Below are positions 1 to 14,203 of a stretch of 64,000 bases of DNA, in pieces. Under the pieces are notes generated by a model. It was not told the DNA's origin. It worked only from the letters and a program-made list of their open reading frames with translations, and made no database searches. The stretch lies in IMG/VR virus record IMGVR_UViG_3300035698_004821, positions 29,085 through 93,084 of that record; one strand, given 5' to 3'. The DNA comes from a virus. Both the position numbers and the translations under genes were made by a program. Every line of letters begins with the position of its first letter. Position 1 is the stretch's first letter.

Positions 1-1
1 G

Positions 2-3000
2 TATAAAAAGAACTACATCAGTTCACTGAGCGCTATGTTATTAGCCAGTGATGCGCCCTCTTCTTTTGTGTTCACTAAGCCTGGATTTTTAGGGCACGAA
101 GAAGGGAAGTTTCTAATAAGTTCTCCGCAGCTAACTAAGATGTTCGGCGGTGACTTAGAGAAACACACCTTAGACAAGGGTCTTTTTCAACTAGCTAAGC
201 TTAAGCACACAGACAGTGGTCTAGCGCGAAGCCTTATAGAGGAGGGCATAGACCCAACTGCGCCGTATGTGATAGCGGGTGAAAGTCGTGGGCAAACGTT
301 AGCTAGACTAAAGCTGAAAGTAGGTATTGTTGATACAGCTAATGATGCTGTATCTCGTTTACTATTCCAAGAAGGCGGAGCTATACTTGGTAAGCCGGGC
401 ATAGCTATGTTTGCACAGAATGCACCTATGGGTGATCTGTCCTTCTCTTCACCTTCTGAGAAACTCATAACCTCAGTAGAAGATGTCTTTGGTATTAACC
501 TGGGAGCAGGCAATGTACAGACCTTCGACTGGAGCCCAACTACCCAATTAGGCAAAGCAAAAACTGAAGACTTAAAGAGAATACTTAAAGCTAGTGGAAA
601 TCAGAGAGGCTTGGCTAGGCTACTGGCTGTGACAGACAACAGGCTAGCCAAAGTAGAGCTAACTGACTCAACCCTTAAGCTGAGCTTCGTCACCCCTAAT
701 AGGGTGACTCCTGCCACCTCTGAAATTAACATAGCGGCCCGTAGATTCGCCGCCACTAAGCTCAATGACTTTAACAAACTAGCTAACTCTGGCATCCCCG
801 AAGACCTATTAGAGAGTGTTCATGTTTGGCATGGTGCCGATGAGTATCTTAAGAACCATGGTCCTGATGTCTTTATCACCAACTTCATAGAAAAGGTAAA
901 AGGCAGAGACGACGCCGAAGTAATATTCCGTAAAGCTTTTGGACACGCAGCTAACATATCTATAAATGGTAAAACCAGAATGGTTGTGCCCGAGATTACC
1001 AGTGTAGATCACGCTTACCGTAACTCTAAGTTACTCGTCCTACGGATGCTCAGAGGAGGCACAGATGAAGAGAAGACGCTAGCCGCAACGATACTAAAGG
1101 GAAACAAGGTAGTTACAGATAAGATGCTCAAGTCTGGCATCACGGGTGTCACTGTAATTGGTATGGGTGGCGCGTCTAGAACTGACTTCATGGGTGATAT
1201 CAATATGATGAACCCTGTGACTATCTCTCCAACTAAGATGACCCACATAGCTGCTGGTGCAAGGCAGCTAGGCTATGACCATCTGTACCAAGACCCAATG
1301 TACAGTCTCTTGGCTGGATCTAATAAATCATGGAATAGTGGGGATATACGTGTACTAGCCGGATCAGGTCAGCTCCATATTAGTGACAAGCATATAATGT
1401 CCAGGTACGCTAAAGCTTTATATGCTAAACCAGGACACATAGATCCGTCGGCTATAGTTACGCTTAACAAGGGCGGAGGCTTTTCAATAGGGGGTAAACC
1501 ACTTAGAGCACTACCTACTGACTTTAACGATTTTTCACATGCTAAAGGTGTTGATTTTAGCCGATTAGAAGGTACCATTTTAGGCCAAAAGCAGGACATG
1601 TTGTATCTTGACCTAGGCAAAGAAAGGCAACTAGATCTTTTGGGCTCAGGTAAAAAAAGTTACAGATACTTGCCTATACCTTTAGACTACCTAAGAGTTA
1701 AAGAAGGGTTACATAACAGACTAATAATTGGCAAAAAGAACCCAACACGAGGTATTGTCCAGTCACTAGTAGACATAGACTCTAATAGAGACTTTTATAA
1801 GGATGTTTTAGCTGAGCTAGAAAATACAGAGTCAAAATTAGGCCGTCAAATGAGCCAAGGCTTCTTTAGCCTTAACAAATCTATAGCGGGTAAAGAAGGT
1901 ATTTTCCAAAAAAGCAACACTATCCTTATGCCATTAGGCGCAAGAACTAGATTGACCCCACAATCGGGTAGTTTCTTTGACATGGCATCTTTAGATGATG
2001 CCAGTAAACTATACACCAGTGTTATGTCTTCTTCAGATTTTGAAGACTACTTAGCTAGAAAGAGCGGAACAGGGAAAGGAGTCCAAAAGCAGATAAGCAA
2101 GATCAAAGAGCTGGTTAAGAAGCAGGGTCACTTCTACGCCATGGTATCTGTAGACCCCATGCAGAGAGCAGAGCACGCTAACCTGATGCGAATTCGAGTG
2201 GATCCTACTATACCTGGCTCTGCAAAGATAGGTCAGCTTAACATGGCCCAGCACCCGTTCTGGTATTTATTGTCGGAAAGAGACACAGACAGAGATGCTG
2301 CGTCTATAGTCCCTCTATCTGGTATGAGTAATACAGGGCTAACAGACGAACAAATAAACTCTCTGCTAGAAGATAGATGGTTGAGACAGCAAAAGCTATC
2401 TAAGCACTTTATGTGGTTTTACAAGCACCAGCTACTGACGGGTAGCGTGGCGTCTGCTGAAGATAGATTCTCTCTTTTAAAGAAAGGTCTAGTTAAGGCT
2501 AAGAACGCTATTAACCACATACCTACATACTTAGGTATTTCTGAGTCACTTGGTTACTCTACAGTGCGTGCCTCAGAAGACATAATGAGTAACCTCATAG
2601 CCTATGATGTGCGTGGCGCAAGACTAGCTGGCGTCAAACACTCAACAGCGTCAGATGAAATGCTGAAACTTATACGCGCTCCCTACGCTAATGACAAGGT
2701 AAGAGCTGAAATAGCTAGAAAAGCATACCAAAACATATACCAGTCACCTGTTGTTAAAGCTGGAAAAGACCTTCTAGGTGCGTTTGACGCGGCGCTCATA
2801 GACATTGGACACAAGTACAAGGGTACTGCCTTCGACTATGACAAAGTAGTAAGTGAAACTGCAGACGCTTTCTACGATCTTTTAGCCGGATCAGGTAAGG
2901 TTAGATCATTCACAGAAACGGAATACCTATACAACAACTTCCCAAAGGTAAAGTCCTCTATGGACCTCATGAAGGCAGACCTAGAGAGAGGTGCTGAGTA

Positions 3001-3682
3001 CGCTAAAGAGAGTGGTAAAAAAGCCAAAGAACAAATCTTCAGAGCAACCTCTCAGCTGATGGGAGAAATGCTAGGTGGAGGCCAAGTTCTCGCTGCATCA
3101 CAAAGCATGCCTAAAGGTGTCAACAGTATTATACAGTCAATAATGAGACCTGAAACAACTCAAGCAGTTGTTGAGTCTAATGTTTTGAGACCAGCTCTTG
3201 GTCTTGAAGAGAAAAACAAAAATAGCCAAAAAGTGGTAGGTGCGCTTCAAGACACGGGTGGAAGAATGCCGATAACCGATGGCGATGCTAGTGAGTCAAT
3301 GATGTCTAAGGCGACTAAGTACTTCAACTCATCTAAGGGTAGAACTTTTGGTGCAGGTATTGGCATCGGCGCCTTGGTAGGCGCTGGTATAGTATCTAGC
3401 ATGTCTGGCCCTGAAGCACCAATGCCAAGAGACGTCGATGGACGTCAACCTACAGACCGTGCACCCGACGTGTACAGCACGCCACCAAGAATATATGGTA
3501 ACCACCAGAGTTTCTCCGCTTCAAAGCAGGGATCTCCAACGGCAATACCTAACATAGGGGCTTATCAGTTCCCGAGTTTTGGTAATTCATCAATAACTAT
3601 AAGGGACAGATCAAGTTCCAGCAACCCCCGTATGATCGAGAGACATATGAGAGATATATCTAACAGCGATTACACATACTAA
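2..3682 (+). CDS. 5'-truncated giant virion protein at the tape-measure/ejection position, with an RNA polymerase beta'-like (two-barrel) region and a C-terminal hydrophobic helix
   Basis: Frame is open from nt 2, so ATG 35 is probably internal. Motifs: LPIPLDYLR (1670-1696), GKEG (1889-1900), ARTRLTP (1940-1960), HP-x8-DTDRD-x5-PL (from 2252). Gly-rich hydrophobic segment FGAGIGIGALVGAGIV at ~3347-3395. Lies two genes upstream of the hub-like gene. Confidence 0.7.
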   Translation, partial: YKKNYISSLSAMLLASDAPSSFVFTKPGFLGHEEGKFLISSPQLTKMFGGDLEKHTLDKGLFQLAKLKHTDSGLARSLIEEGIDPTAPYVIAGESRGQTLARLKLKVGIVDTANDAVSRLLFQEGGAILGKPGIAMFAQNAPMGDLSFSSPSEKLITSVEDVFGINLGAGNVQTFDWSPTTQLGKAKTEDLKRILKASGNQRGLARLLAVTDNRLAKVELTDSTLKLSFVTPNRVTPATSEINIAARRFAATKLNDFNKLANSGIPEDLLESVHVWHGADEYLKNHGPDVFITNFIEKVKGRDDAEVIFRKAFGHAANISINGKTRMVVPEITSVDHAYRNSKLLVLRMLRGGTDEEKTLAATILKGNKVVTDKMLKSGITGVTVIGMGGASRTDFMGDINMMNPVTISPTKMTHIAAGARQLGYDHLYQDPMYSLLAGSNKSWNSGDIRVLAGSGQLHISDKHIMSRYAKALYAKPGHIDPSAIVTLNKGGGFSIGGKPLRALPTDFNDFSHAKGVDFSRLEGTILGQKQDMLYLDLGKERQLDLLGSGKKSYRYLPIPLDYLRVKEGLHNRLIIGKKNPTRGIVQSLVDIDSNRDFYKDVLAELENTESKLGRQMSQGFFSLNKSIAGKEGIFQKSNTILMPLGARTRLTPQSGSFFDMASLDDASKLYTSVMSSSDFEDYLARKSGTGKGVQKQISKIKELVKKQGHFYAMVSVDPMQRAEHANLMRIRVDPTIPGSAKIGQLNMAQHPFWYLLSERDTDRDAASIVPLSGMSNTGLTDEQINSLLEDRWLRQQKLSKHFMWFYKHQLLTGSVASAEDRFSLLKKGLVKAKNAINHIPTYLGISESLGYSTVRASEDIMSNLIAYDVRGARLAGVKHSTASDEMLKLIRAPYANDKVRAEIARKAYQNIYQSPVVKAGKDLLGAFDAALIDIGHKYKGTAFDYDKVVSETADAFYDLLAGSGKVRSFTETEYLYNNFPKVKSSMDLMKADLERGAEYAKESGKKAKEQIFRATSQLMGEMLGGGQVLAASQSMPKGVNSIIQSIMRPETTQAVVESNVLRPALGLEEKNKNSQKVVGALQDTGGRMPITDGDASESMMSKATKYFNSSKGRTFGAGIGIGALVGAGIVSSMSGPEAPMPRDVDGRQPTDRAPDVYSTPPRIYGNHQSFSASKQGSPTAIPNIGAYQFPSFGNSSITIRDRSSSSNPRMIERHMRDISNSDYTY

Positions 3683-3683
3683 C

Positions 3684-6600
3684 ATGACAACCACAACATT
3701 AACTAACTATGCAAGCGCATATGCAGTAGGCCGCCAGCATGTTCACTTTGACTGCAGGGCGAGCACACCAACTACTGGTTTAATGAGTGATCGAGATGCC
3801 CAAGGATATTGGAGGGTTATTCGCGCAGGATCAATTATTAAACGTGAAAATGGTATATTAGACTTTGCTTGGCTTGGTCTAGACGGAGACATCGTACAAT
3901 GCATGGCTGTCGATAGTGCTGGCAACAAAGGGGAGTTTGTATCTTACACTTATAGTGTTGCTGCGAACACTGCCGCTGATGTTGTTTACTACGTCAACTC
4001 AGCAACGGGTAATGACTCTACTGGTGATGGCTCAAGTGGCCTACCTTGGGCTACTCCAGGTAAAGCTGCTACTGAGATGGCCTCGGCCTTAGGTGGCACT
4101 GAATCAGGTGTTATCTTTATCTCAGGCAGTAACACATACGTGATTACTGGATCCTTATGGGGTGGTGGTGATGCACTAACCCGTCAGGTTAGGTTTATAT
4201 GGGATGGGACTGGTACGAAGCCGACTCTTAGCTTCTCGAATAATGCTACAGGATTTATCACTGGTAAGCGTGAGTCGCCACATATTGAAGGCTTTATATT
4301 AGATGGTGACGCGGTAGACGGAACTGCTAATAGTTACTGCGTTACCTTTAACCGTGATGGCGGAGTCGCAGCTGATCGATCGGCCTACAACATCATGTTG
4401 GTCAATTGTGACCTGCGGAACTTTTCAAACCATATTGAAGGTAATGAGGTAACCGTAGGGTCATCGGACCGATCATCTGGCTGTTTTGACTTTGTCGCTC
4501 TTGAAAACTGCACACTAGCGGGTATTCACGGAGCATCTCCAGGTGCCCAGTACTACCTTTACTCTTGGAAGTACGTAGAGAAGTGGTTACTTAACAACGT
4601 CTCATTCGGTGCTGCGGTTAGTTTCAACTCAGGTATAAGACTACTACAGACAGGTAGAGGTTATACCTCTGATGTTGTAGAAGACTACGGAATCAAAAGA
4701 ACCCGATTCACTATCGCTCCAGGAGTAGGTAACGAGACTAAACTTCAGTCTCACGTTCGATGGACTAAGTATGCTGGAGATGGAGATGATGTCATAGGTT
4801 ACGAGACTGATGCGTCTAACGTTGGCATTAGTTACGTTGAAGATATTCGATACTACGACTGTAGGCTACTGGATTCAAGAATATCTTTTAGAGCTAATGA
4901 AGGAGCAGTTCTAAATGGTGTTAATGTCACTAGGTTTGACATTATCAATACAGTATCTAAAGGCTACCATATTGGTAGGACTGCTGCTGTAGGTCACTCC
5001 ATTAGCTCCATCAGGTGGAGGGATTGTGCAGTAATCAGAGACTACCAAAATGGCGCATTCATCACTATAGATGGTGTAGCCGATGGTCTAGAGACTGACT
5101 CCTTACTGTTCAACGGCTGCTACGTTTATTGGCGGATGACTAATGGCTTTGAAGGTGGTGGTGTATTCTACTCTGCGTTCAATGCACTAAGAGCCACGAT
5201 CGCTGCGGCAGTTCACGGTGACTCTGATAATAACCATACTGCTAAAGTAAACTCTACTTTCCTGCGGTGGGCTTCTCACTCAGATGATTCTGGGGAATCT
5301 GACTTAACTCAATGGCAAGCTGTATCTGACGCTGACGACTCTTCAGATACACATAATAGTACTACACTATTCTTAACTAATAATGGTGCATCTGACTTTA
5401 GAGATACTGATGTCACACTAACTAGTGGAGCAGGACCATTAAATAATGTTGGATCTCCCTTAGCTCTTGGCGTTGCTATTGACTCAGCAGGTAAGTTAAG
5501 AAGTGCCTCTACCCCTGATGCAGGACCCTATGAGTTTGGAGCTACGGATCTACCCGACGACCCACTACCCGACGACCCACTATCCCCTCTATTAACTACG
5601 AGTTCCATGCCTGTTGTTACAGTCGAGGTACAGTCCCCACCGGTGACGCCTTTGCCCCTAGTATCAGCAGGCTCTATACCTGCTGTAACAGCGAACATCG
5701 CTACATCTACAGAAGTAGTGGTTGGTTCTCCTCTTATATCCACAGTTAGCCTACCAGTAGTGGTTGGTTCTCCGCTTATACCCACGGCTATCCCACCCCT
5801 TTCTAGTGTAAGTAGCCTACCAACTGTAAGTGTTGCTTCCGTTGATCACTTTCAAATTGACACAGCTGGACCAGGAATGGAAAGCTGGAGATCTACAAAA
5901 TTCTCGGCTACAGTTAATGGTGATACAGCCTACGTCTATGCACATACTAGAGAGACACAGTTTTCGTGTTCAGTTTGGGACGCAGGGGTTGATGTTGAGC
6001 AGTCCGTGCTTAGGTATGGCGCTAGTGAAGCAACGACAGTAACCATTAGTCTTGCGGATGCCACTGCAATTACGTCTGCTATAGTCTACCCAAAAAACTT
6101 AGGTGTTACCCAGGTAATTTCAATGGGAGTCTTGACATTGACCGTGCCTGCGAATGTCAGACTACGGGTTGAGGTTAATGGGGACCGTGCCGAAGTACTG
6201 TCTTTACTCGCCAACCCGCTTACTTCTACTCCTACCTCAGTAGTTGACTACACAACTCTAGCAAAAGCTATTGACTCTGTGAGTACTACTGCAGACGGGT
6301 ATATAACTATTACGGCGCATGGTTGGACTGGGTTTTTACGCGGTCTTATGACTACGCCAGATGAGTTACCAACACCTACCGAAGGTACAATAGGGGCTTA
6401 TGAAGCAGTTCTTCTTTTGGTCATTGATGAAAATACTGTTGTAATTTTAGACGATAATTACGTCCCAAGGACATTTAGCGCATCAGGTAGTGATGTGTTT
6501 ATGTCTCCAGCCCAATGGACTGATACGGTTAACACACTGTTAATACCCGCCGGTCAGCATAACATAGGTGCTCAGTTTACCCTGGGTGATAACGTAAGCG

Positions 6601-8075
6601 TCTACCTTGAAAAAGGGGCTGTAGCCCTAGGGTCATTTCAAATGAACTGCACTAATGCAAGGGTACATGGTCCTGGCGTTTTAGCAGGAACTCACGTTGA
6701 TTCTCTGGTTGGCTGGAACTCGGGGGACTTTAATGTAAAAGTAGTTACATCTATGTTTTACAGGGCCCCCACTAGTTCTGATGATCACTCTAATACTATT
6801 GAAGATATCACAGTGTTGGGTAGCCCTTTCTTTTTAAACTTTTTAGGTGTAAAGAAGTTTAAAAATGTGGCACATATATCTCCCTGGAATTACTCAACAG
6901 ATGGTTTTGCTCCTCAGACTATAACAAGTAACGAAAGTGATATAAGTGAGATCATAGATTGTTACGCTCTTTGTGGCGATGACGCGTTACGAATAAGTAT
7001 AAGAGAACGTAGCTGTGAAACTTCAGGCACCTTTGTTACCACTACAAACAATTCATGCATTAGCAGTGACACTAGGGTGCATTTTATTAATGAAAATAGG
7101 TATAGCAAGACTACAGACACGCACTTAATGCATTTAGGAAAAGCGGATAGTGTCGGGGGTAATATAGCCTCTAAAACAATAATTAAGTTATTGACCGACG
7201 GTCGCGATAACACACCACCCTTTGGTCACTTCAACTACACTTTTGAACGGATCAATGTATGGGGACCAATAGAGTCTAGGCTTTTTTGGTTGGGTAGTTT
7301 AGCTAACCCGTTTCAGGTTAGTAGAGGTTTGCATGGTGTGGTGCAAAACGTACTCTTTAAAGACTTTACTGTAGAAGCAGTCCCTGGTCAAATCTCATCT
7401 ATCACATCTAAGGATGCCACTAACACACCCTCTAATATTACTTTTGAAGAACTATCTATAGGCGGCCAAAAAATATTTAGTGATAACCGGCATTCTTATG
7501 TGTCCGTGTCGGGTCTTGCATATGATATAGTCTGGGACATTCGGCCTGGCACAATACTTCTTGATCCTTCTGAGGTGCACAGCATCTCGTCTATTAATCT
7601 TCTTTATGCTGGTGATGTACCGGCCATACTTGTAAGTAATAGTGAATCAGTAGCGACTACATCAGCTGGGCAAGGAGGCTTAACAGAGGTTATAGCTTTT
7701 GATCTACACCTAAAGGTAGGTCAAGCAACAGCCTCTGGAACTAATGAGCCCATTGATCCACCAAGAGATCCACCGACCGAGCTACCCGTATTTAGCATAT
7801 CCGTTCCCTCCTCTACTCCCAGCTTAGAGCAGGCTGTGGCTATACGGGATGAAGTGGTGCTGCCTATACTGCTAGAGCTTGATAAAATTGATAACAATAT
7901 TGCTAAAGCATCCACTAATAGCAAGGTGGTGTGGTCGCAAAGTGTATTAGATCGTATAGAGGTTCCTGCTGTGTCACGGACCATAATTAAAATTAAAGCT
8001 GCCAACTACAGTAAGTTCACCCGAAGGGTGGACAGTCCTGTCGTAAGAGCGTCCACACCTAGACGAAGATTCTAA
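3684..8075 (+). CDS. Two-module beta-helix protein; putative polysaccharide depolymerase (module 2 GH49/GH28-like)
   Basis: Module 1 starts YYVNSATGNDSTGDGSSGLPWAT and ends TPDAGPYEF, typical ends of right-handed beta-helix domains. A Pro/Val/Ser linker follows. Module 2 has SAIVYPKNLG..VEVNGD..LLANP, VYLEKGAV, VHGPGVLAG, STDG and GDDALR. Confidence 0.7.
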   Translation: MTTTTLTNYASAYAVGRQHVHFDCRASTPTTGLMSDRDAQGYWRVIRAGSIIKRENGILDFAWLGLDGDIVQCMAVDSAGNKGEFVSYTYSVAANTAADVVYYVNSATGNDSTGDGSSGLPWATPGKAATEMASALGGTESGVIFISGSNTYVITGSLWGGGDALTRQVRFIWDGTGTKPTLSFSNNATGFITGKRESPHIEGFILDGDAVDGTANSYCVTFNRDGGVAADRSAYNIMLVNCDLRNFSNHIEGNEVTVGSSDRSSGCFDFVALENCTLAGIHGASPGAQYYLYSWKYVEKWLLNNVSFGAAVSFNSGIRLLQTGRGYTSDVVEDYGIKRTRFTIAPGVGNETKLQSHVRWTKYAGDGDDVIGYETDASNVGISYVEDIRYYDCRLLDSRISFRANEGAVLNGVNVTRFDIINTVSKGYHIGRTAAVGHSISSIRWRDCAVIRDYQNGAFITIDGVADGLETDSLLFNGCYVYWRMTNGFEGGGVFYSAFNALRATIAAAVHGDSDNNHTAKVNSTFLRWASHSDDSGESDLTQWQAVSDADDSSDTHNSTTLFLTNNGASDFRDTDVTLTSGAGPLNNVGSPLALGVAIDSAGKLRSASTPDAGPYEFGATDLPDDPLPDDPLSPLLTTSSMPVVTVEVQSPPVTPLPLVSAGSIPAVTANIATSTEVVVGSPLISTVSLPVVVGSPLIPTAIPPLSSVSSLPTVSVASVDHFQIDTAGPGMESWRSTKFSATVNGDTAYVYAHTRETQFSCSVWDAGVDVEQSVLRYGASEATTVTISLADATAITSAIVYPKNLGVTQVISMGVLTLTVPANVRLRVEVNGDRAEVLSLLANPLTSTPTSVVDYTTLAKAIDSVSTTADGYITITAHGWTGFLRGLMTTPDELPTPTEGTIGAYEAVLLLVIDENTVVILDDNYVPRTFSASGSDVFMSPAQWTDTVNTLLIPAGQHNIGAQFTLGDNVSVYLEKGAVALGSFQMNCTNARVHGPGVLAGTHVDSLVGWNSGDFNVKVVTSMFYRAPTSSDDHSNTIEDITVLGSPFFLNFLGVKKFKNVAHISPWNYSTDGFAPQTITSNESDISEIIDCYALCGDDALRISIRERSCETSGTFVTTTNNSCISSDTRVHFINENRYSKTTDTHLMHLGKADSVGGNIASKTIIKLLTDGRDNTPPFGHFNYTFERINVWGPIESRLFWLGSLANPFQVSRGLHGVVQNVLFKDFTVEAVPGQISSITSKDATNTPSNITFEELSIGGQKIFSDNRHSYVSVSGLAYDIVWDIRPGTILLDPSEVHSISSINLLYAGDVPAILVSNSESVATTSAGQGGLTEVIAFDLHLKVGQATASGTNEPIDPPRDPPTELPVFSISVPSSTPSLEQAVAIRDEVVLPILLELDKIDNNIAKASTNSKVVWSQSVLDRIEVPAVSRTIIKIKAANYSKFTRRVDSPVVRASTPRRRF
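5550..5582 (+). repeat. 15-bp tandem repeat (ctacccgacgaccca x2) encoding LPDDP-LPDDP linker
   Basis: Exact units at 5550-5564 and 5565-5579, followed by a partial cta. Confidence 0.95.
5714..5785 (+). repeat. Imperfect 42-bp-period repeat encoding VVVGSPLI x2 in the linker
   Basis: agtagtggttggttctcc occurs at 5714 and 5756, each followed by N-cttata-N-ccac. Confidence 0.9.
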
Positions 8076-11000
8076 TGCTAGAAAATAACACAAACCTACA
8101 GATAGGACCCCTAAAGTATAGCCACGTTGTTCAGAAAATTGCTATACAGGAGAGAAAGTCTGTGGACGTCCTAGAGACTACAAGGTCGAATAGAAACTTT
8201 GTAGTAGACTCTGGCGAAGCAATGCACAAGGCGCAGATAAGACTATTGTTTACTGGGCTAGATGAGATCAATAGAGGTGCAGGAGCCGAAGGCGAAGAGA
8301 GTGGCCTAAGAGGACTGATAGCTCTATTCCGTACTGCCCCCATTATCTCCATACTAAACAAGTACCTGAATACATCATGGAAGAAGCAGGACGAACTGCT
8401 TAGAGAGGATGATGGCTCCCTCTCTGAGGGTAGTGTCTATTTCTCAGAGATAGTTCCTGTGGCCTTAGATGGTATAGAGCTAGAGAATGTCCCTGACATT
8501 CCCTTTAGTATCCAGGTCACGCTGTCGGTATCTAGGGTTGAGATTGGCCCTGTGTCTAACTCCGAAGTTCTGTATTACCTAGGTGAGAATAGCAAGGAGG
8601 ATAGGAAGGAGAGACCTCAAGATGCCTTCTGGTTAAGGAAGTGGATAGAGCAGATATTAAGTTCTGATGAAATACCAGAGCTAAAGCCTACCGACTTTGA
8701 TAAAGCTAACTTTAACTGGTACGGTAAGACAGCAGTTGGCACAAGCATAGAGACTAATAGAGAGAACTTTCACTTACACCTTACTACATCAGATACAACG
8801 ACAGGCGGTGTACTCATATCTGAGAACTGCTCCATGCGCCATAGGTTTGCCTACAACAAGCTACTGGGTAACATCTTCTCCTTTCCAACGCACATGGGAT
8901 CCACAGCCCGATCTATGTCTCTGGACATTGTCTTCAACAACCAGGAGTCGGATGAAACGTACGCCCAGTTCTGCAGGTTCAAGGAGACAGCGGATGAGAT
9001 AGCTAAGAGCAAGAATAGGTTTGATAGAGTCACAGGGTGGCACATTCAGACCCCTATATCTAAGTTGCTTGGCCTTAAGAAGACGACACTAGCCGAAGGA
9101 GTCCCAGGTCAAAAACCATACGAAGGGGTGTACGTGCCTGTTAATATTACCTCTGAGAGTGGGGAGCAACCTAATATGGTCAACTGTAGAATAGACCTAC
9201 TAGAGAGTAATGTAGACTTCTACAGGGATAATGAGATCAACCTAATCAATGGAGGCACAGACTATGAGGACCTGTGGCAATACTTTGATAGTATTATGGA
9301 TCAGGAGTTCGCCTTTCGGAAGAAACTAAGGGATGATAAGGATGCGGCCATACGAGAAATAGTAGGTAGAAGTAGTGAGGATAACTACAAAGGGTACCAG
9401 CTGTTCTGGCCTATAACCCAGGGGGTTACAAAGATCAAGACAGCTTCTCCCTTTGCTATACTAAATGTAGATACACTACGTGCCGTCTTCCTGGACCCTG
9501 ACTTTGATGTAGGTGGAAGGATACGTGACGCACTGTTGAACCACTCTCTAACATACGGGGAGGTGGTAGCCAACCGTCGAGTAATTATATCTGATAAAGT
9601 TGTACAGAATGGTAGCCTAATTTGGAGAACTTTTGCTGGACTAGACAACAATGATCTAGAGACAGGAAAACTAATAGAGGCAATTCGTAATGTAGTTGCT
9701 ACTCAATTCATGACTTGGTCTGACTTAGAGGAGCCAAGTGTGCAGGACATAGTTCGACATTTAGCTAATCCGGCTACCTTAGGTGATCAACCCCCAGAGA
9801 TTCTAGGTGGGCTTGGAGCCGTAGATATTCTATCTACTGCCATAGCTATAGACCTAACCCGAGGGTTCTTAGGTGATGCTAAAAGCTTTTTTACTACAGA
9901 ATCATCAACAGGAAAAGTACTTTCTAGGCTATTCTCAAGTAAGTATGAGTTCCTTCCAGCCTTCAAGGAGGCTTTGTTTAAGGTAATAACAGAGCGAAAG
10001 GGTAAGCCTAAACTCCTACCTCATGTATATTCTACAGATGGTGTCTACTCTGCCTTCTACAAACTCATAACATCCTACACCCTAGAGAAGGACGCCACCA
10101 TAGGCATACAAGAGGCAAGAGATAACTATGTACAGGACAATAGGAACCTACAGGGCTCCAGTCTATACCCTGACCTTTTACTGCCTACGTATGTTGACCT
10201 CTATGGGAAAGATAGATGGAGTGAGTTCGCGCCGACTATAGAAGACTTAGGTCTAGACACTTACTACGAGGGGGCACTTACTTCAGAAGACCTTAAGGCT
10301 GTTCAAGGTAATGACATCGTGTCACCTGCTGCATGGTTCTATATAAAGCGAGTTAAGAATGGGGAGACAGGCTTGAAAAGCCTAGCCAGAACTACGGCTG
10401 ACGTCATAGACAAGACTAGTCCCAACCTCCATATCTCCATGCCCTTCAATACTAATGAGATAGCAGACATCAAACAGCTGATCCAAAAGGATGGGAAAGA
10501 GACAGGCATGAAGGGTATGAAGACTAACCGTACCCTCTCTGAAATCATTGAGGATTCCTTATACTCCTACAAGGAGTCTGACCCCTCTGGGTACAGACAA
10601 GACCTAACCACCCTACTAACTAACGCTGATAAGTTTGAAGAGGGGTATCTAAAGGATAACGGATCTCTTAAGGTCTACATACACCACAATAATAACTACT
10701 CGATACCTAGGGAGATTAATGTTCCAGGACTAGGTGCTCAAGTATACAAGATAGCGAGCAAGAAGAGAGAGCTCAATACTGATAAGCTACGCAGACTAGA
10801 CGCAGATGCGGCGTACACGACTCCTCTTGAGGAGGATGTCAAGTTCAACAGACACCTAGATGGCAACACTAGAAAACTTATGGACTCTTCTCTTAGCCAA
10901 ATACCAGATGACCAGTACAGCCCGGAAAGGTTGTTCCCATCTATAAAGGTATTCCTGATAGACAGAAGAGGCAATGACATAATAGCAGACGATGGTCTGT

Positions 11001-14000
11001 TCTCTGTCAACGCCATAGTCTCTGTGGATGTGACACTAGATAAACAAGACGCCCCACTGGCCGTGATAAAGTTAGCTGACCCACTGTACACACTGCAGAA
11101 TGACTACTTCGATAAGTCCAACATATCCAACAGGGATAGCAAAGGGAACGCTTTACCTGAGAATAGAAAGAAGGTCCTAGGCTCTCTAAGAGACCCTGAC
11201 TCAGATAGCAACCTTAAGAGATACAAACTCATCCAGGGCAGATCCATACAGATCAGGATGGGCTATAGCTCCATGGCGTATAACCTGCCTATCGTATTCA
11301 CAGGCAGAATTACAGAGATAGTGCCTGGTGATCAGCTCACTGTCGTGGCGCAAGGCTGGAAAGCTGAGCTTATAAACCGTAAGGTTAGCTTCCTTAACAA
11401 GGAGCCTGCCAACTGGGGAGCAAGAGACCTAGCTATCCAAGCGATAACCTACGCGAACCCGGATGGGTTCGGCGATAAGTTCCCTGAGCATGACGCTCAG
11501 TTCATCCTACGTAACCTTAGAAACCAGGATGTCGCTTCCGCAGTTACTAACGCTATAGATGCCTACCAGAACATCCAATTAGAGGGTGTCGGCTCGACAG
11601 GTGTTGTAGGTGGCTTAGGCAATTACATAATCAAGACCATAGGTCTTAAGTCGGTTACTAAGAAGGATAAAGGCTTTGACACACGCCTAAAGAACATATG
11701 GTATCCGGATACATCACTGTACAGTAACGTATTCGGTCTGAGATCCACCTTTGGTTTAATGCCTAGCTTCCTAAACGATAGCTGGATTATACCCTTACAG
11801 CCCGCCTGGGACGCCCTACAAGAGGCGTCAAGACATGCGTGGAACTGCATTATAGATGTGGTGCCATACGATAATGAAGCAACCATCTTCATGGGCCATC
11901 CTGACCAGCCTTATTACTTCACTCGGGGTACAGCCCTTAGCAAGGCGCTGTATAACAAGTACAGGAAGAGCTCTAACAAAGATGTTAACAAGGTGTTGAG
12001 CAACTTGTTCAATGGGTTCTTAGACTCTAAGTACTATGCCAATGAGGCTCCAGACTTTATAGAGGGTCGGATTAAGGCTGCTGCAGCACTACTGACTGAA
12101 AGACAAGGCTTCTTTGTAACTAATAGGAACGCGATTTCAGCTGCTGCCGCTAGCATCTTCCGAGGAGTAGAGCTATCGGGTCTGTCCGCATTCGGTTCCC
12201 TAAGTGACTACTATAGGCTGTACGCCAAGTACTTACTTGAAGACAAGGGTAACGCCTCTGAGCTTGTCGCGTCCAATGCCATATTTGAGGAAGCAGAAAA
12301 GTCCGGACTACCCTTAGCTAGACTAGAGCAGGTGAAGAATACGGGTGTATCTTCCGACTTCACTATCCTAGTCTTTGCCAAATTCTTTGGCATAGATGCT
12401 AGTAGAATATTCATAGGCTGGCCGAATGCAGACAAGGATATAAATCAAATACTAGCTAGGAACTCAAACGTGGAGGACTTCCTGAAGCCTGTAGAGATAG
12501 CTATAGACGGGCTGACGGGAAGGAGCTACTACAGCGACAAGTTATTGGAGTACATAGACAAAGACCTACGCCGAATAAACTCTACTAGACCCCTCGTTGA
12601 ATATGTGAGCGCAGGATCAGGTGGAGCCTCAGTTAGTGCCTACAGCATTCTACCCACCCTTAGATACGCCAAGACGTCTACGTCGTACCTGAGTAACGAA
12701 GGTCTTACCTCGTTCATTACTCAAAGCTTAGAAGCCTACAGTACTGATGATGCATCTAGCAGAGGTCTACTGGATAAAGCTTCACACAGGGCAACACTGA
12801 CGGACCTTAGGGCCAAGATAGAAGCCATCAGATCCAACAAGGAATACATAGTTAGTAAGTCCATACTCAGTGAGCTTGGTGTACCAATTAATGGAAAGCT
12901 GTCTGACATAGTCAAGGACAACATAGCCTTATTCAAGATATTCATGTACTTCTTCTGCTCCTACGTCATGGAAGACGGAGAGGCTATACAGACAACACAA
13001 GAACTTACTGAGGATAATGACTTCAAGTTGCCACCGAACATGAAGGTGTTTAGGGTACATCACTACGCTGACGATGACCACAACATTATACAGAATAACA
13101 TTGTGTCTACTACTCGTGAGATGTGGAATACGGTAGTTATTGAGCACCCTTCCGCTGGCTCAGCCGAAGACACCGTTAGCTCAGAAGAGCAGCTCTACAC
13201 TCAGGGAAGAATCAATGCAGGCGCCAACTGGGTGTACTACCCCAAGCAAGAAGTGACAGGTGTAATAGGTCTACAGTTCCACCCTGGTCTAACATTAGCT
13301 AATAAGAAAATAAAGGTATTCACAGAGCTAAACTGCCAGAGCCCTGAGCTCGCTGCAAAGCTGGCTTGTAACCACCTTGCCCAAGGCATTAGAAAGATGT
13401 ATCGTGGTAACTTGCTCCTACTGGGTAAAAACATTAAGCCCCACGATAGAATCATCTTAGGTGACAAGTACACCAACATGGCTGGACCAGTAGAGGTGGA
13501 GAGCGTGATACATCACTGGAATGCTGATCAAGGTTGGGTAACCAACATCATACCTAATGCTGTATGCGACTCCAACCCAGGAGCAGGTATACTACAGACA
13601 GCTGCCATGGAAGCTACCTTCCAAGGTGTCTTCAATGTAATTGACTTCGTATCAGACGCACTCATGTGGGCTACAATTATAGCAACCCTAGGCGCGGCTA
13701 CTCCTCTAGCTGTGGGTGCCTTTAGTGTTAAGCAGGGTGTATTAGGTTTAGCCAAGAAGGTAGTGAGTAAGGGTCTACGTGGGAGCTCTAAAGAAATCCT
13801 CAAGTCGTATGGAAGAAGACTCAAGTCCGCAGGGGCAGGGGCAGGTGGTGTTGGCGGTGCGCTCCTAAAGAGAGGGCAGTCGGTGAATGCACTTAGAAAG
13901 GTCTTCCGTGAAGTAGCCGGTCCAGGAGTAGCTTTGCTTAGCAATGAGTTGAAGATAGGCGCAGCAGAATTTGGGGCACATATGTTCTTTAAATCCAATG

Positions 14001-14203
14001 TTATCGCTGGGTTTGTTGATTCATCTAAAGATGTCGAACAACTGCCCGTAATTCTATCCCCCATACTGTTCAATGGCAACCCATTTACATCAGGGCTAGA
14101 GACAGAGGATGCCATATGGGCCATAGCCTCTTTCGGATTCTACTACTCCTCAAGAGAGCTTCAGAGAGGAGCAGCCCTTCTTTACGATGAGATCTTTAAA
14201 TAA
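8075..14203 (+). CDS. Giant baseplate hub-like / central tail protein (2042 aa)
   Basis: IQIRMGYSSMAYNLPIVFTGRITEI resembles the hub (gp27/gpD-type) strand motif. A late G...IKPHDRIIL..VESVIHHW motif is present. Lies upstream of the gp25-like and J-like genes and has hydrophobic C-terminal helices. Confidence 0.7.
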   Translation: MLENNTNLQIGPLKYSHVVQKIAIQERKSVDVLETTRSNRNFVVDSGEAMHKAQIRLLFTGLDEINRGAGAEGEESGLRGLIALFRTAPIISILNKYLNTSWKKQDELLREDDGSLSEGSVYFSEIVPVALDGIELENVPDIPFSIQVTLSVSRVEIGPVSNSEVLYYLGENSKEDRKERPQDAFWLRKWIEQILSSDEIPELKPTDFDKANFNWYGKTAVGTSIETNRENFHLHLTTSDTTTGGVLISENCSMRHRFAYNKLLGNIFSFPTHMGSTARSMSLDIVFNNQESDETYAQFCRFKETADEIAKSKNRFDRVTGWHIQTPISKLLGLKKTTLAEGVPGQKPYEGVYVPVNITSESGEQPNMVNCRIDLLESNVDFYRDNEINLINGGTDYEDLWQYFDSIMDQEFAFRKKLRDDKDAAIREIVGRSSEDNYKGYQLFWPITQGVTKIKTASPFAILNVDTLRAVFLDPDFDVGGRIRDALLNHSLTYGEVVANRRVIISDKVVQNGSLIWRTFAGLDNNDLETGKLIEAIRNVVATQFMTWSDLEEPSVQDIVRHLANPATLGDQPPEILGGLGAVDILSTAIAIDLTRGFLGDAKSFFTTESSTGKVLSRLFSSKYEFLPAFKEALFKVITERKGKPKLLPHVYSTDGVYSAFYKLITSYTLEKDATIGIQEARDNYVQDNRNLQGSSLYPDLLLPTYVDLYGKDRWSEFAPTIEDLGLDTYYEGALTSEDLKAVQGNDIVSPAAWFYIKRVKNGETGLKSLARTTADVIDKTSPNLHISMPFNTNEIADIKQLIQKDGKETGMKGMKTNRTLSEIIEDSLYSYKESDPSGYRQDLTTLLTNADKFEEGYLKDNGSLKVYIHHNNNYSIPREINVPGLGAQVYKIASKKRELNTDKLRRLDADAAYTTPLEEDVKFNRHLDGNTRKLMDSSLSQIPDDQYSPERLFPSIKVFLIDRRGNDIIADDGLFSVNAIVSVDVTLDKQDAPLAVIKLADPLYTLQNDYFDKSNISNRDSKGNALPENRKKVLGSLRDPDSDSNLKRYKLIQGRSIQIRMGYSSMAYNLPIVFTGRITEIVPGDQLTVVAQGWKAELINRKVSFLNKEPANWGARDLAIQAITYANPDGFGDKFPEHDAQFILRNLRNQDVASAVTNAIDAYQNIQLEGVGSTGVVGGLGNYIIKTIGLKSVTKKDKGFDTRLKNIWYPDTSLYSNVFGLRSTFGLMPSFLNDSWIIPLQPAWDALQEASRHAWNCIIDVVPYDNEATIFMGHPDQPYYFTRGTALSKALYNKYRKSSNKDVNKVLSNLFNGFLDSKYYANEAPDFIEGRIKAAAALLTERQGFFVTNRNAISAAAASIFRGVELSGLSAFGSLSDYYRLYAKYLLEDKGNASELVASNAIFEEAEKSGLPLARLEQVKNTGVSSDFTILVFAKFFGIDASRIFIGWPNADKDINQILARNSNVEDFLKPVEIAIDGLTGRSYYSDKLLEYIDKDLRRINSTRPLVEYVSAGSGGASVSAYSILPTLRYAKTSTSYLSNEGLTSFITQSLEAYSTDDASSRGLLDKASHRATLTDLRAKIEAIRSNKEYIVSKSILSELGVPINGKLSDIVKDNIALFKIFMYFFCSYVMEDGEAIQTTQELTEDNDFKLPPNMKVFRVHHYADDDHNIIQNNIVSTTREMWNTVVIEHPSAGSAEDTVSSEEQLYTQGRINAGANWVYYPKQEVTGVIGLQFHPGLTLANKKIKVFTELNCQSPELAAKLACNHLAQGIRKMYRGNLLLLGKNIKPHDRIILGDKYTNMAGPVEVESVIHHWNADQGWVTNIIPNAVCDSNPGAGILQTAAMEATFQGVFNVIDFVSDALMWATIIATLGAATPLAVGAFSVKQGVLGLAKKVVSKGLRGSSKEILKSYGRRLKSAGAGAGGVGGALLKRGQSVNALRKVFREVAGPGVALLSNELKIGAAEFGAHMFFKSNVIAGFVDSSKDVEQLPVILSPILFNGNPFTSGLETEDAIWAIASFGFYYSSRELQRGAALLYDEIFK

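Follow-up and report, generated by a model that had tools for sequence, protein, structure and literature searches.

The stretch of viral DNA examined here (the window) comprises 64,000 nucleotides, bases 29085-93084 of the 93,084-bp IMG/VR record IMGVR_UViG_3300035698_004821 (G000, completeness 48% by CheckV), and it opens inside a gene whose 1506-residue product, P0003, is the subject of this study; the phage is large, contractile-tailed and uncultured. The gene stands among tail genes: its start ATG shares bases with the stop codon of the preceding gene for a 1446-amino-acid (aa) protein (TAATG), the gene downstream begins 1 nucleotide (nt) past its own stop, and P0003 is presumably co-transcribed with the tail genes. 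The original prediction, made from the letters of the window, had noticed VDP and ERDTDRD at window 2141-2320 (frame +2, P0003 residues 994-1053) and proposed that they form a non-canonical RNA polymerase (RNAP) active site, belonging either to a highly divergent active polymerase or to an exapted, inactive fold that binds DNA or serves in ejection. Both motifs are indeed found at that site, and the residues D750/D752/D754 of that prediction, counted from an ATG at position 35, are D1041/D1043/D1045 of the complete protein. P0003 is most likely a single-chain two-barrel nucleotide polymerase, specifically a DNA-dependent RNA polymerase, and its layout is a beta-like module followed by a beta'-like module, a helical region, a hydrophobic segment and a conserved C-terminal tail (Table 1).

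Table 1. P0003 and its parts, with positions in the window unless another coordinate system is named.
Feature	Position	Strand	Basis or remark
P0003 gene, 4521 nt, codes 1506 aa	start G000:C1:28246, 839 nt 5' of the window	+	
3' part of the P0003 gene, residues 281-1506	1..3682	+	open reading frame (ORF) and translation; the ORF leaves the window at the 5' end
Predicted beta/Rpb2-like module including the second barrel, residues about 300-700	59..1261	+	fold matches of model 1
Predicted beta'/Rpb1-like module, residues 760-1260	1439..2941	+	fold matches of model 2
YLPIPLDYLR, on beta' region-B motif LPVLPPDLRP	1667..1696	+	HHalign
GKEG...ARTRLTP, on beta' switch-2 region GKQGR...SGRSVI	1889..1960	+	HHalign
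Predicted catalytic double-psi beta-barrel (DPBB), residues 990-1052 (region of the original prediction)	2129..2317	+	models, fold matches, HHalign
SVDP (residues 996-999), where beta' has NRAP; V997 at the place of R425	2147..2158	+	HHalign, conservation
ERDTDRD, putative catalytic loop (residues 1039-1045), where beta' has NADFDGD	2276..2296	+	conservation
GYSTVR, start of a long predicted helix	2552..2569	+	by-eye match to the bridge helix (GY..RR)
Low-confidence inter-helix loop with invariant Q1194 and K1199	2729..2758	+	candidate trigger-loop tip
Gly/Ala-rich hydrophobic segment	3344..3421	+	most hydrophobic 19-residue stretch of P0003 (Kyte-Doolittle scan)
Pro-rich linker and conserved extreme C-terminus	3422..3679	+	S1502 and D1503 nearly invariant

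P0003 holds a single DxDxD in all of its 1506 residues. By our estimate a lone DxDxD is expected by chance in about one quarter of proteins of 1500 residues, so the presence of the motif proves little by itself and its conservation is the real test. A word-indexed search returned 13 homologs (1452-1516 aa, 31-76% identity), and 64 proteins of 390-1966 aa came up at E<=0.001 when a profile was searched against 1.84 billion cluster representatives. All of the profile-search matches that span the site keep the triad in the form [E/N/T/S]RDxD[R/K/N/L/M/A]D. When 69 sequences with 15-76% identity were aligned (mean column identity 17%), the three aspartates that the original prediction had named as retained metal ligands, D1041, D1043 and D1045, were each found in 69 of 69, as were R1040 and P999. 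Only eight columns were invariant in the whole of residues 760-1260, namely R930, P999, R1040, D1041, D1043, D1045, Q1194 and K1199, the last two being kept in 68/68 homologs. Judged by homology, all eight map to elements of the active centre: the switch-2 arginine, the proline of the RxP motif, the catalytic loop and a trigger-loop-like tip. This pattern argues for a working catalytic site over a dead scaffold, and it is the pattern from which we infer activity.

The fold was predicted with two AlphaFold models, model 1 covering residues 300-1390 with 16 sequences (predicted local distance difference test score, pLDDT, 78.7; predicted template modelling score, pTM, 0.78) and model 2 covering residues 760-1260 with 69 sequences (pLDDT 87.9). 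Both predict the order strand-strand-strand-helix-loop-strand for barrel residues 990-1052. In Foldseek searches of the PDB, all 50 of the matches listed for model 1 were large subunits of multisubunit RNAPs, with weak E-values (from 3e-3). Model 2 gave 93 matches at E<=1e-3, and the 50 listed were without exception RNAP largest subunits of the beta'/Rpb1 type, the best being AR9 7s01_d (6.8e-6). VIA-align applied to the Foldseek candidates matched residues 300-682 to beta/Rpb2-type chains with Z 11-12 over 230-310 residues at a root-mean-square deviation (rmsd) of 4-6 Å. The partners were chain C of the AR9 non-virion RNAP (nvRNAP), chain B of Pol IV/V, the African swine fever virus (ASFV) chain, vaccinia Rpo132 and E. 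coli beta 513-1244, and AR9 7s01_C was the best of them (Z 12.2, 291 residues aligned).

A wide VIA-align fold search of 48,161 representative chains, independent of Foldseek, gave the same picture. The top 12 for model 2 were all RNAP largest subunits, among them vaccinia Rpo147 with Z 10.2 over 305 residues, and they were followed at Z 6.5-7.6 by generic DPBB domains, RDR2, QDE-1 and P23-45 gp96, which matched the barrel only. The top 22 for model 1 were all two-barrel polymerases, with Z 9.6-11.9 for the beta-type and Z 6.4-7.7 for the beta'-type chains. QDE-1 spans both barrels of model 1 (Z 9.7, 327 residues, rmsd 4.1 Å) and P74 gp62 also spans both halves (Z 7.5). Because these two proteins align across both halves, the predicted placing of the two barrels relative to each other is that of a working two-barrel enzyme. 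A DxDxD-bearing catalytic barrel, one of the marks of the two-barrel superfamily, is present by the evidence of the model, the fold matches and the triad in 69/69 sequences, and a second, beta/Rpb2-type barrel facing the first, another such mark, is present in the predicted structure. On these models, a single-chain two-barrel fold in which a beta-like module is fused to a beta'-like module is well supported.

The fold comparison also bears on a quite different explanation, that the DxDxD occurs by chance in a tail protein whose DPBB is of the lytic-transglycosylase or expansin type and unrelated to polymerases. RlpA, MltA and expansins have DPBB folds, the fold list includes kiwellin (Z 5.1), and the neighbouring hub protein has a lysin-like domain. 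However, the RNAP matches span 250-400 residues beyond the barrel with Z of about 10-12, where kiwellin reaches about 5, none of the 69 sequences departs from the triad, and a second, beta-type module is present. The much greater length and strength of the RNAP matches led to the rejection of a DPBB of the lytic-transglycosylase type, and a chance motif of this kind is hardly credible.

Sequence comparison with the bacterial subunits was made with RpoC and RpoB profiles built from E. coli and proteobacterial loci only, of which the RpoC profile is shallow. When the P0003 family was compared with RpoC 300-520, HHalign aligned 55 columns (beta' 422-472) at P 2e-4, pairing V997 with beta' R425, P999 with P427 and ERDTDRD with NADFDGD. 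The substitutions read by eye in the original prediction (NA replaced by ER, the near-invariant glycine by arginine, and the RxP arginine aligned with the valine of VDP) are thus reproduced by HHalign and the conservation counts. A looser HHalign comparison with RpoC produced one colinear alignment of 249 columns (P 5.6e-4) with four beta' landmarks in the correct order. Within the stretch placed on region B, P838 is kept in 59/69 and P840 in 53/69 sequences, and in the switch-2-like stretch G913 is kept in 66/69 and R930 in 69/69. The RpoC comparison was a single planned one, and as a sequence result it agrees with the fold result and with the earlier by-eye alignment. When the family hidden Markov model (HMM) was compared with RpoC, the best segment was the NADFDGD region, with a negative score. 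The beta-like half gave no significant HHalign result against RpoB, either whole or in four targeted sub-windows, and the by-eye pairings FQEGG/NFEDS and GGASR..M.D/GGQRFGEME were left unsupported by those windows. No clear beta-type lysine pair had been recognised in the window beforehand and none was located here either; the basic candidates in the beta-type barrel are K339, R528 and R673, which no homolog covering them has lost. Like the fold, the distant homology of P0003 to beta and beta' is well supported.

Pfam gave no match to P0003 at E<=1 and none to six of the most distant homologs scanned. As for the beta' family, PF00623 (RNA_pol_Rpb1_2) had no match in the record at E<=10, and the signature is ERDTDRD, not NADFDGD; as for the beta family, PF00562 (RNA_pol_Rpb2_6) had no match on P0003, and the likeness is at the level of fold only. 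Regarding the clade of RNA-dependent RNA polymerase (RdRP), YonO and QDE-1, there was no Pfam match to PF05183, and the ESM Atlas yielded scores at chance level throughout, PF05183 being the nearest named cluster (0.78). A tblastn search of P0003 against 50,697 phage records found no match, and the family HMM had no significant match to YonO or to gp145, gp146 and gp147 of Bacillus phage 0305phi8-36.

Position 1044, the glycine of DFDGD, is Arg in 40 sequences, Lys in 16, Asn in 4, Leu in 4, Met in 2, Ala in 2 and Gln in 1, and it is Gly in 0/69. Position 1039, the asparagine of NADFDGD, is Glu in 59 and Asn in 5, with few others. Position 997, at the place of beta' R425, is Ala (32), Val (21), Pro (9), Ile (4), Phe (1), Ser (1) or Thr (1), and basic in 0/69, while position 1005 is a nearly invariant His (66 of 69). 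The original prediction had called for a check of the triad and the RxP position in homologs, and the outcome is a triad that never varies next to a position 997 that is never basic. This is the reason that the family fails the genome screen of the authors who described P23-45 gp96, which demanded [RK]xP followed by DxDxD (PMC10770324). With the spacing of that filter, [RK]xP 20-100 residues before DxDxD, P0003 has the invariant P999, and two positions before it the residue is mostly A, V, P or I. The motif strings of the family are absent from the text of the supplements of that study (PMC10770324), whose alignment file may lie outside the searched text.

These substitutions raise the question of sugar choice. 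Beta' R425 and N458 are described as universally conserved in multisubunit RNAPs, and R425 as the main determinant of selection of nucleoside triphosphates (NTPs) over deoxynucleoside triphosphates (dNTPs), with contributions from N458 and trigger-loop Q929 (Makinen et al., PMC7862312); in E. coli RNAP, R425 gives >100-fold selective NTP binding and inhibits incorporation of deoxynucleoside monophosphates (dNMP) (PMC7862312). P0003 could accordingly be an active two-barrel polymerase with altered sugar choice that may accept dNTPs, working as a DNA polymerase or primase or making mixed polymers at the start of infection. The never-basic position 997 and the Glu at 1039 in 59/69 sequences speak for this, as does PolD, which is proof that a two-barrel core can make DNA (PMC4996933). 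However, P0003 shares all three aspartates with RNAPs, of which only two have a counterpart in PolD (PMC4996933), and the invariant R1040 and Q1194 could restore ribose sensing. The DP2 subunit of PolD appeared in neither of the wide fold searches, in which RNAP subunits filled the top ranks, and a PolD-like reading was set aside on this ground and on that of the two aspartates. To our knowledge, every known virion-delivered phage polymerase (N4, crAss-like, phiKZ, P23-45) is an RNAP, which also counts against altered sugar choice, and we consider it improbable.

Further elements of an RNAP active centre may be present downstream of the barrel. The loop that carries Q1194 and K1199 is a candidate trigger-loop tip; in model 1 the pLDDT falls here (residues 896-902), with helices 880-894 and 905-919 on either side. 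GYSTVR may represent the C-terminal half of the bridge helix, a match made by eye and without statistical support, with G1131, Y1132 and R1136 kept in 82-84% of 68 homologs. One could also imagine another metal-dependent activity on the same scaffold, for example that of a nuclease or phosphodiesterase acting on host or phage nucleic acid after ejection, given that the RNAP active centre also catalyses hydrolysis of RNA. However, the switch-2-like, bridge-helix-like and trigger-loop-like elements and the QDE-1-like two-barrel geometry that are kept are more than a nuclease needs. We know of no precedent for a nuclease or phosphodiesterase on this scaffold, and such an activity is very unlikely.

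The genomic setting of P0003 is that of a tape measure. PHROG matches upstream of it include terminase, portal, major head protein, tail sheath and tube-like proteins, and those downstream include baseplate gp25-like and wedge proteins. The genes run in the order sheath, tube, chaperone-like genes of 141 aa and 205 aa, the 1446-aa gene, P0003, a 1463-aa gene, a 2042-aa hub and baseplate, and the same order is found in five related contigs, across which the 1446-aa neighbour has 48-71% identity and P0003 26-52%. The nearest isolates by portal protein are Bacillus phage 0305phi8-36 and Acinetobacter phage ME3. In 0305phi8-36 the order is tail chaperonins, gp145, gp146 and hub gp147, with gp146 annotated as a hypothetical tape measure protein; mass spectrometry has detected gp146 in virions. 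The counterpart of gp145 is the 1446-aa protein (E 3e-21) and that of gp147 is the 2042-aa hub, so that P0003, lying between these two, can be placed in the gp146 slot. It thus lies between the tail assembly chaperones and the baseplate hub, as a tape-measure gene does. Pfam and PHROG tape-measure families gave no match to P0003, and unlike a typical extended helical tape measure it has some 800 residues predicted to be globular, with long helices predicted only at 1060-1390. The hydrophobic segment near the C-terminus is also present in the family consensus. There is a weak likeness between the extreme C-termini of P0003 and gp146 (HHalign P 0.044, one of five tests).

Several genes around P0003 deserve a remark of their own. 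The 1446-aa protein encoded directly 5' of P0003 (L002:13906-18246, G000:C1:23906-28246) has an N-terminal hydrophobic segment, is nearly constant in length (1447-1459 aa) and is better conserved than P0003; this homolog of the virion protein gp145 may be what actually measures length, or else a partner that forms a channel. A second 1446-aa gene (L002:50-4390) immediately follows the gene for the major head protein and matches no family, and the idea that the two 1446-aa proteins of the record are paralogs was rejected (BLASTP E 0.46). The 1463-aa protein (window 3684-8075) is the variable gene of the block, with 898-1995 aa and 21-43% identity in relatives, the latter over short stretches only; it has only a weak PHROG tail match and no counterpart at that place in 0305phi8-36 or ME3. 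Residues 1655-1838 of the 2042-aa protein (window 8075-14203) match phrog_20474, labelled endolysin, and the protein is likely a hub with a cell-wall-degrading domain. The adjacent paralogs L002:10643-11329 and L002:11371-12123 match phrog_9206, labelled major head protein, and their 0305phi8-36 counterparts gp140 and gp141 are noted as the tail tube and a tube paralog; the head label looks like an inherited misnomer.

Among the closest known systems to P0003 is gp96 of Thermus phage P23-45, an active virion RNAP fused to the tape measure (PDB 8H2M/8H2N; PMC10770324), for which transcription of pre-early genes as the DNA enters was proposed (PMC10770324). Like P0003 it is a single-chain two-barrel polymerase at the tape-measure position of a long-tailed phage, with proposed roles in ejection and in transcription of the first genes, and it too has hydrophobic segments downstream of the polymerase part. 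However, gp96 belongs to a siphovirus, has 5002 residues with an N-terminal polymerase and carries DFDGD, whereas P0003 is a myovirus protein of 1506 residues in which RDxD[RK]D stands without the RxP arginine. The structural likeness between the two is low (Z 6.1-6.5 over 86-215 residues), and the chains of multisubunit beta and beta' match P0003 better; P74 gp62 likewise, at Z 6.0-7.5 to the P0003 models, lies below them. PDB sequence searches with P0003 or the family profile gave no match to gp96/gp64. P0003 would be a myovirus parallel of gp96 that derives from another polymerase clade.

Among the multisubunit RNAPs, the best structural matches to both halves of P0003 are the non-virion RNAPs of the jumbo phages AR9 and phiKZ (7S00/7S01, 7OGP, 8QUE). 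P0003 differs from multisubunit RNAPs in that its modules are fused in one chain, no other subunits were detected and the gene stands among tail genes; the equivalents of R425, N458 and G462 are replaced, and the Pfam beta and beta' models are unmatched. YonO of SPbeta, QDE-1 and gp66 of crAss-like phi14:2 resemble P0003 in having both barrels in one polypeptide, but no sequence similarity between them and P0003 was detected, and the loop of YonO is DNDGD. QDE-1 and RDR2 match the beta'-like half alone only in the barrel (Z 7.0-7.2, about 110 residues). The phi14:2 gp66 polymerase is virion-delivered (as cited in PMC10770324); 6VR4 was not among the fold matches listed.

A related protein open to experiment is gp036 of the cultured Acinetobacter phage vB_AbaM_ME3, a protein of 1603 aa annotated as hypothetical. 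It occupies the same slot, between the gp145-like and hub genes, and has one DxDxD at a relative position similar to that in P0003. In the BFVD library of viral protein structures the best match was a "minor tail protein" of an uncultured siphovirus (8.2e-10), and the second half of ME3 gp036 was third-best (E 4.2e-8 over 962 columns), but sequence similarity between gp036 and P0003 is not significant (HHalign P 0.074). The motif of gp036 is REP...GGDHDQD, so that the RxP arginine is kept and there is no arginine before the triad, the reverse of P0003. As far as sequences go, this contrast fits an arginine that moved to the loop, but two lineages are too few to prove compensation. The gp036 gene lies at L103:19172-23983 and has no relatives among the 50,697 phage records. 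ORF65 (1677 aa) of Microcystis phage MaMV-DC, at L105:1225-6258 (-), is a further structural match to P0003 (BFVD 1.3e-4) and reads RTP...NEGDADGD. A second protein of that phage, ORF82 (3560 aa; L105:18653-29335 (-)), reads NLGDFDGD, and MaMV-DC may encode two two-barrel polymerases, ORF65 and ORF82, both annotated as hypothetical.

It had also been suggested that a canonical motif might be supplied by the part of the gene 5' of the window or by another gene, and this was not borne out. The single DxDxD is the only one in the complete P0003, and neither the record nor G001, a relative of 189,716 bp with direct terminal repeats that is rated complete, has a PF00623 or PF00562 match that would indicate a canonical beta or beta' elsewhere. 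G001 carries one copy of the P0003 family, and neither it nor the record has a paralog. PF00940, taken as a sign of a T7-type polymerase, had no match in the record or G001, but it had none in the control genomes either and is uninformative. In G001, a 205-aa ORF, L100 (G001:C1:155847-156044), has a weak, sub-threshold match to sigma-70 region 2 (E 0.003), and this ORF may code for a phage sigma factor used in later transcription.

We put at roughly 60% the probability that P0003 is a working RNA polymerase, delivered in the virion, whose sugar-sensing site has been rebuilt, both its activity and its location in the virion being what we infer from the evidence above. Some of the findings weigh against this. 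The equivalents of R425 and N458 are gone from the family, a bulky residue replaces the glycine of DFDGD in 69/69 sequences, and the two basic residues expected from a beta-type barrel could not be mapped by HHalign to RpoB. The HHalign probabilities are modest (30-47%), and searches of Pfam, PHROGs and PDB sequences with the protein and the family profile gave nothing meaningful. In the same slot, 0305phi8-36 gp146 is without DxDxD, which means that the tape-measure slot does not require a polymerase, and it is not obvious that a tail tube has room for a folded polymerase core of about 100 kDa.

The losses around the triad and the unrecognised lysine pair, together with the tape-measure slot, the hydrophobic C-terminal segment, the gp146 protein without DxDxD and the faster evolution of P0003 than of its neighbours, are also what would be expected of an exapted RNAP fold without polymerase activity. 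Such a protein would act in the tail lumen, in ejection or as a tape measure, perhaps holding on to the DNA as it is ejected, with the triad used for a structural metal or for binding DNA ends. However, at less than 20% identity the invariance falls exactly on the residues that homology places in the catalytic centre, and the invariant set includes a trigger-loop-like Gln and Lys that structure does not need. Other two-barrel enzymes with odd loops are active, including PolD, whose catalytic loop aligns with only two Asp, evidence that the superfamily allows some variation in this loop (PMC4996933), and YonO with DNDGD. An inactive fold is thus unlikely, although it is the strongest of the alternatives. 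Of the choice offered by the original prediction, the RNAP fold and the residue alignment hold, the active option is favoured by the invariance seen in the sequences, and ejection would be a delivery route and not an alternative to catalysis.

For an active polymerase, the tape-measure slot suggests that ejection is probably part of the role of P0003 and provides the delivery route for catalysis. That the phage tail is the route of delivery is indicated by the slot, by the operon coupling, by the hydrophobic tail at the C-terminus and by the precedent of P23-45. P0003 would be built into the phage tail and enter the cell by ejection, either before the DNA or together with it, and it would then transcribe early genes without the host polymerase, as reported for P23-45 gp96. 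In the active site, D1041, D1043 and D1045 would hold Mg2+ for catalysis, and R1040 of the catalytic loop together with Q1194 of the trigger-loop-like tip may take over ribose sensing from the absent R425 and N458. A more far-reaching version can be offered only tentatively and is rather doubtful. It holds that a large myovirus lineage delivers a polymerase of the multisubunit clade via the tail, that the ribose-sensing arginine has moved from the RxP strand to R1040 with ME3 gp036 keeping the ancestral arrangement, and that the result is either a new way of reading the sugar or relaxed selectivity, possibly with DNA or mixed polymers made early.

Two-barrel RNAPs are defined by a handful of residues that are treated as universal, and published screens rely on them. 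The P0003 family keeps the metal triad absolutely and breaks three other rules, and because those three are broken, screens based on residues miss the family. If P0003 is active, virion polymerases in the tape-measure slot would also occur in myoviruses of the 0305phi8-36 group and would not be the curiosity of one Thermus siphovirus. The multisubunit clade would then gain a fused derivative that is carried through the phage tail, and the family would be a natural test case for sugar selection without beta' R425. With a structurally related protein in the same slot of a cultured system, phage ME3 offers a route to testing a tail-slot polymerase.

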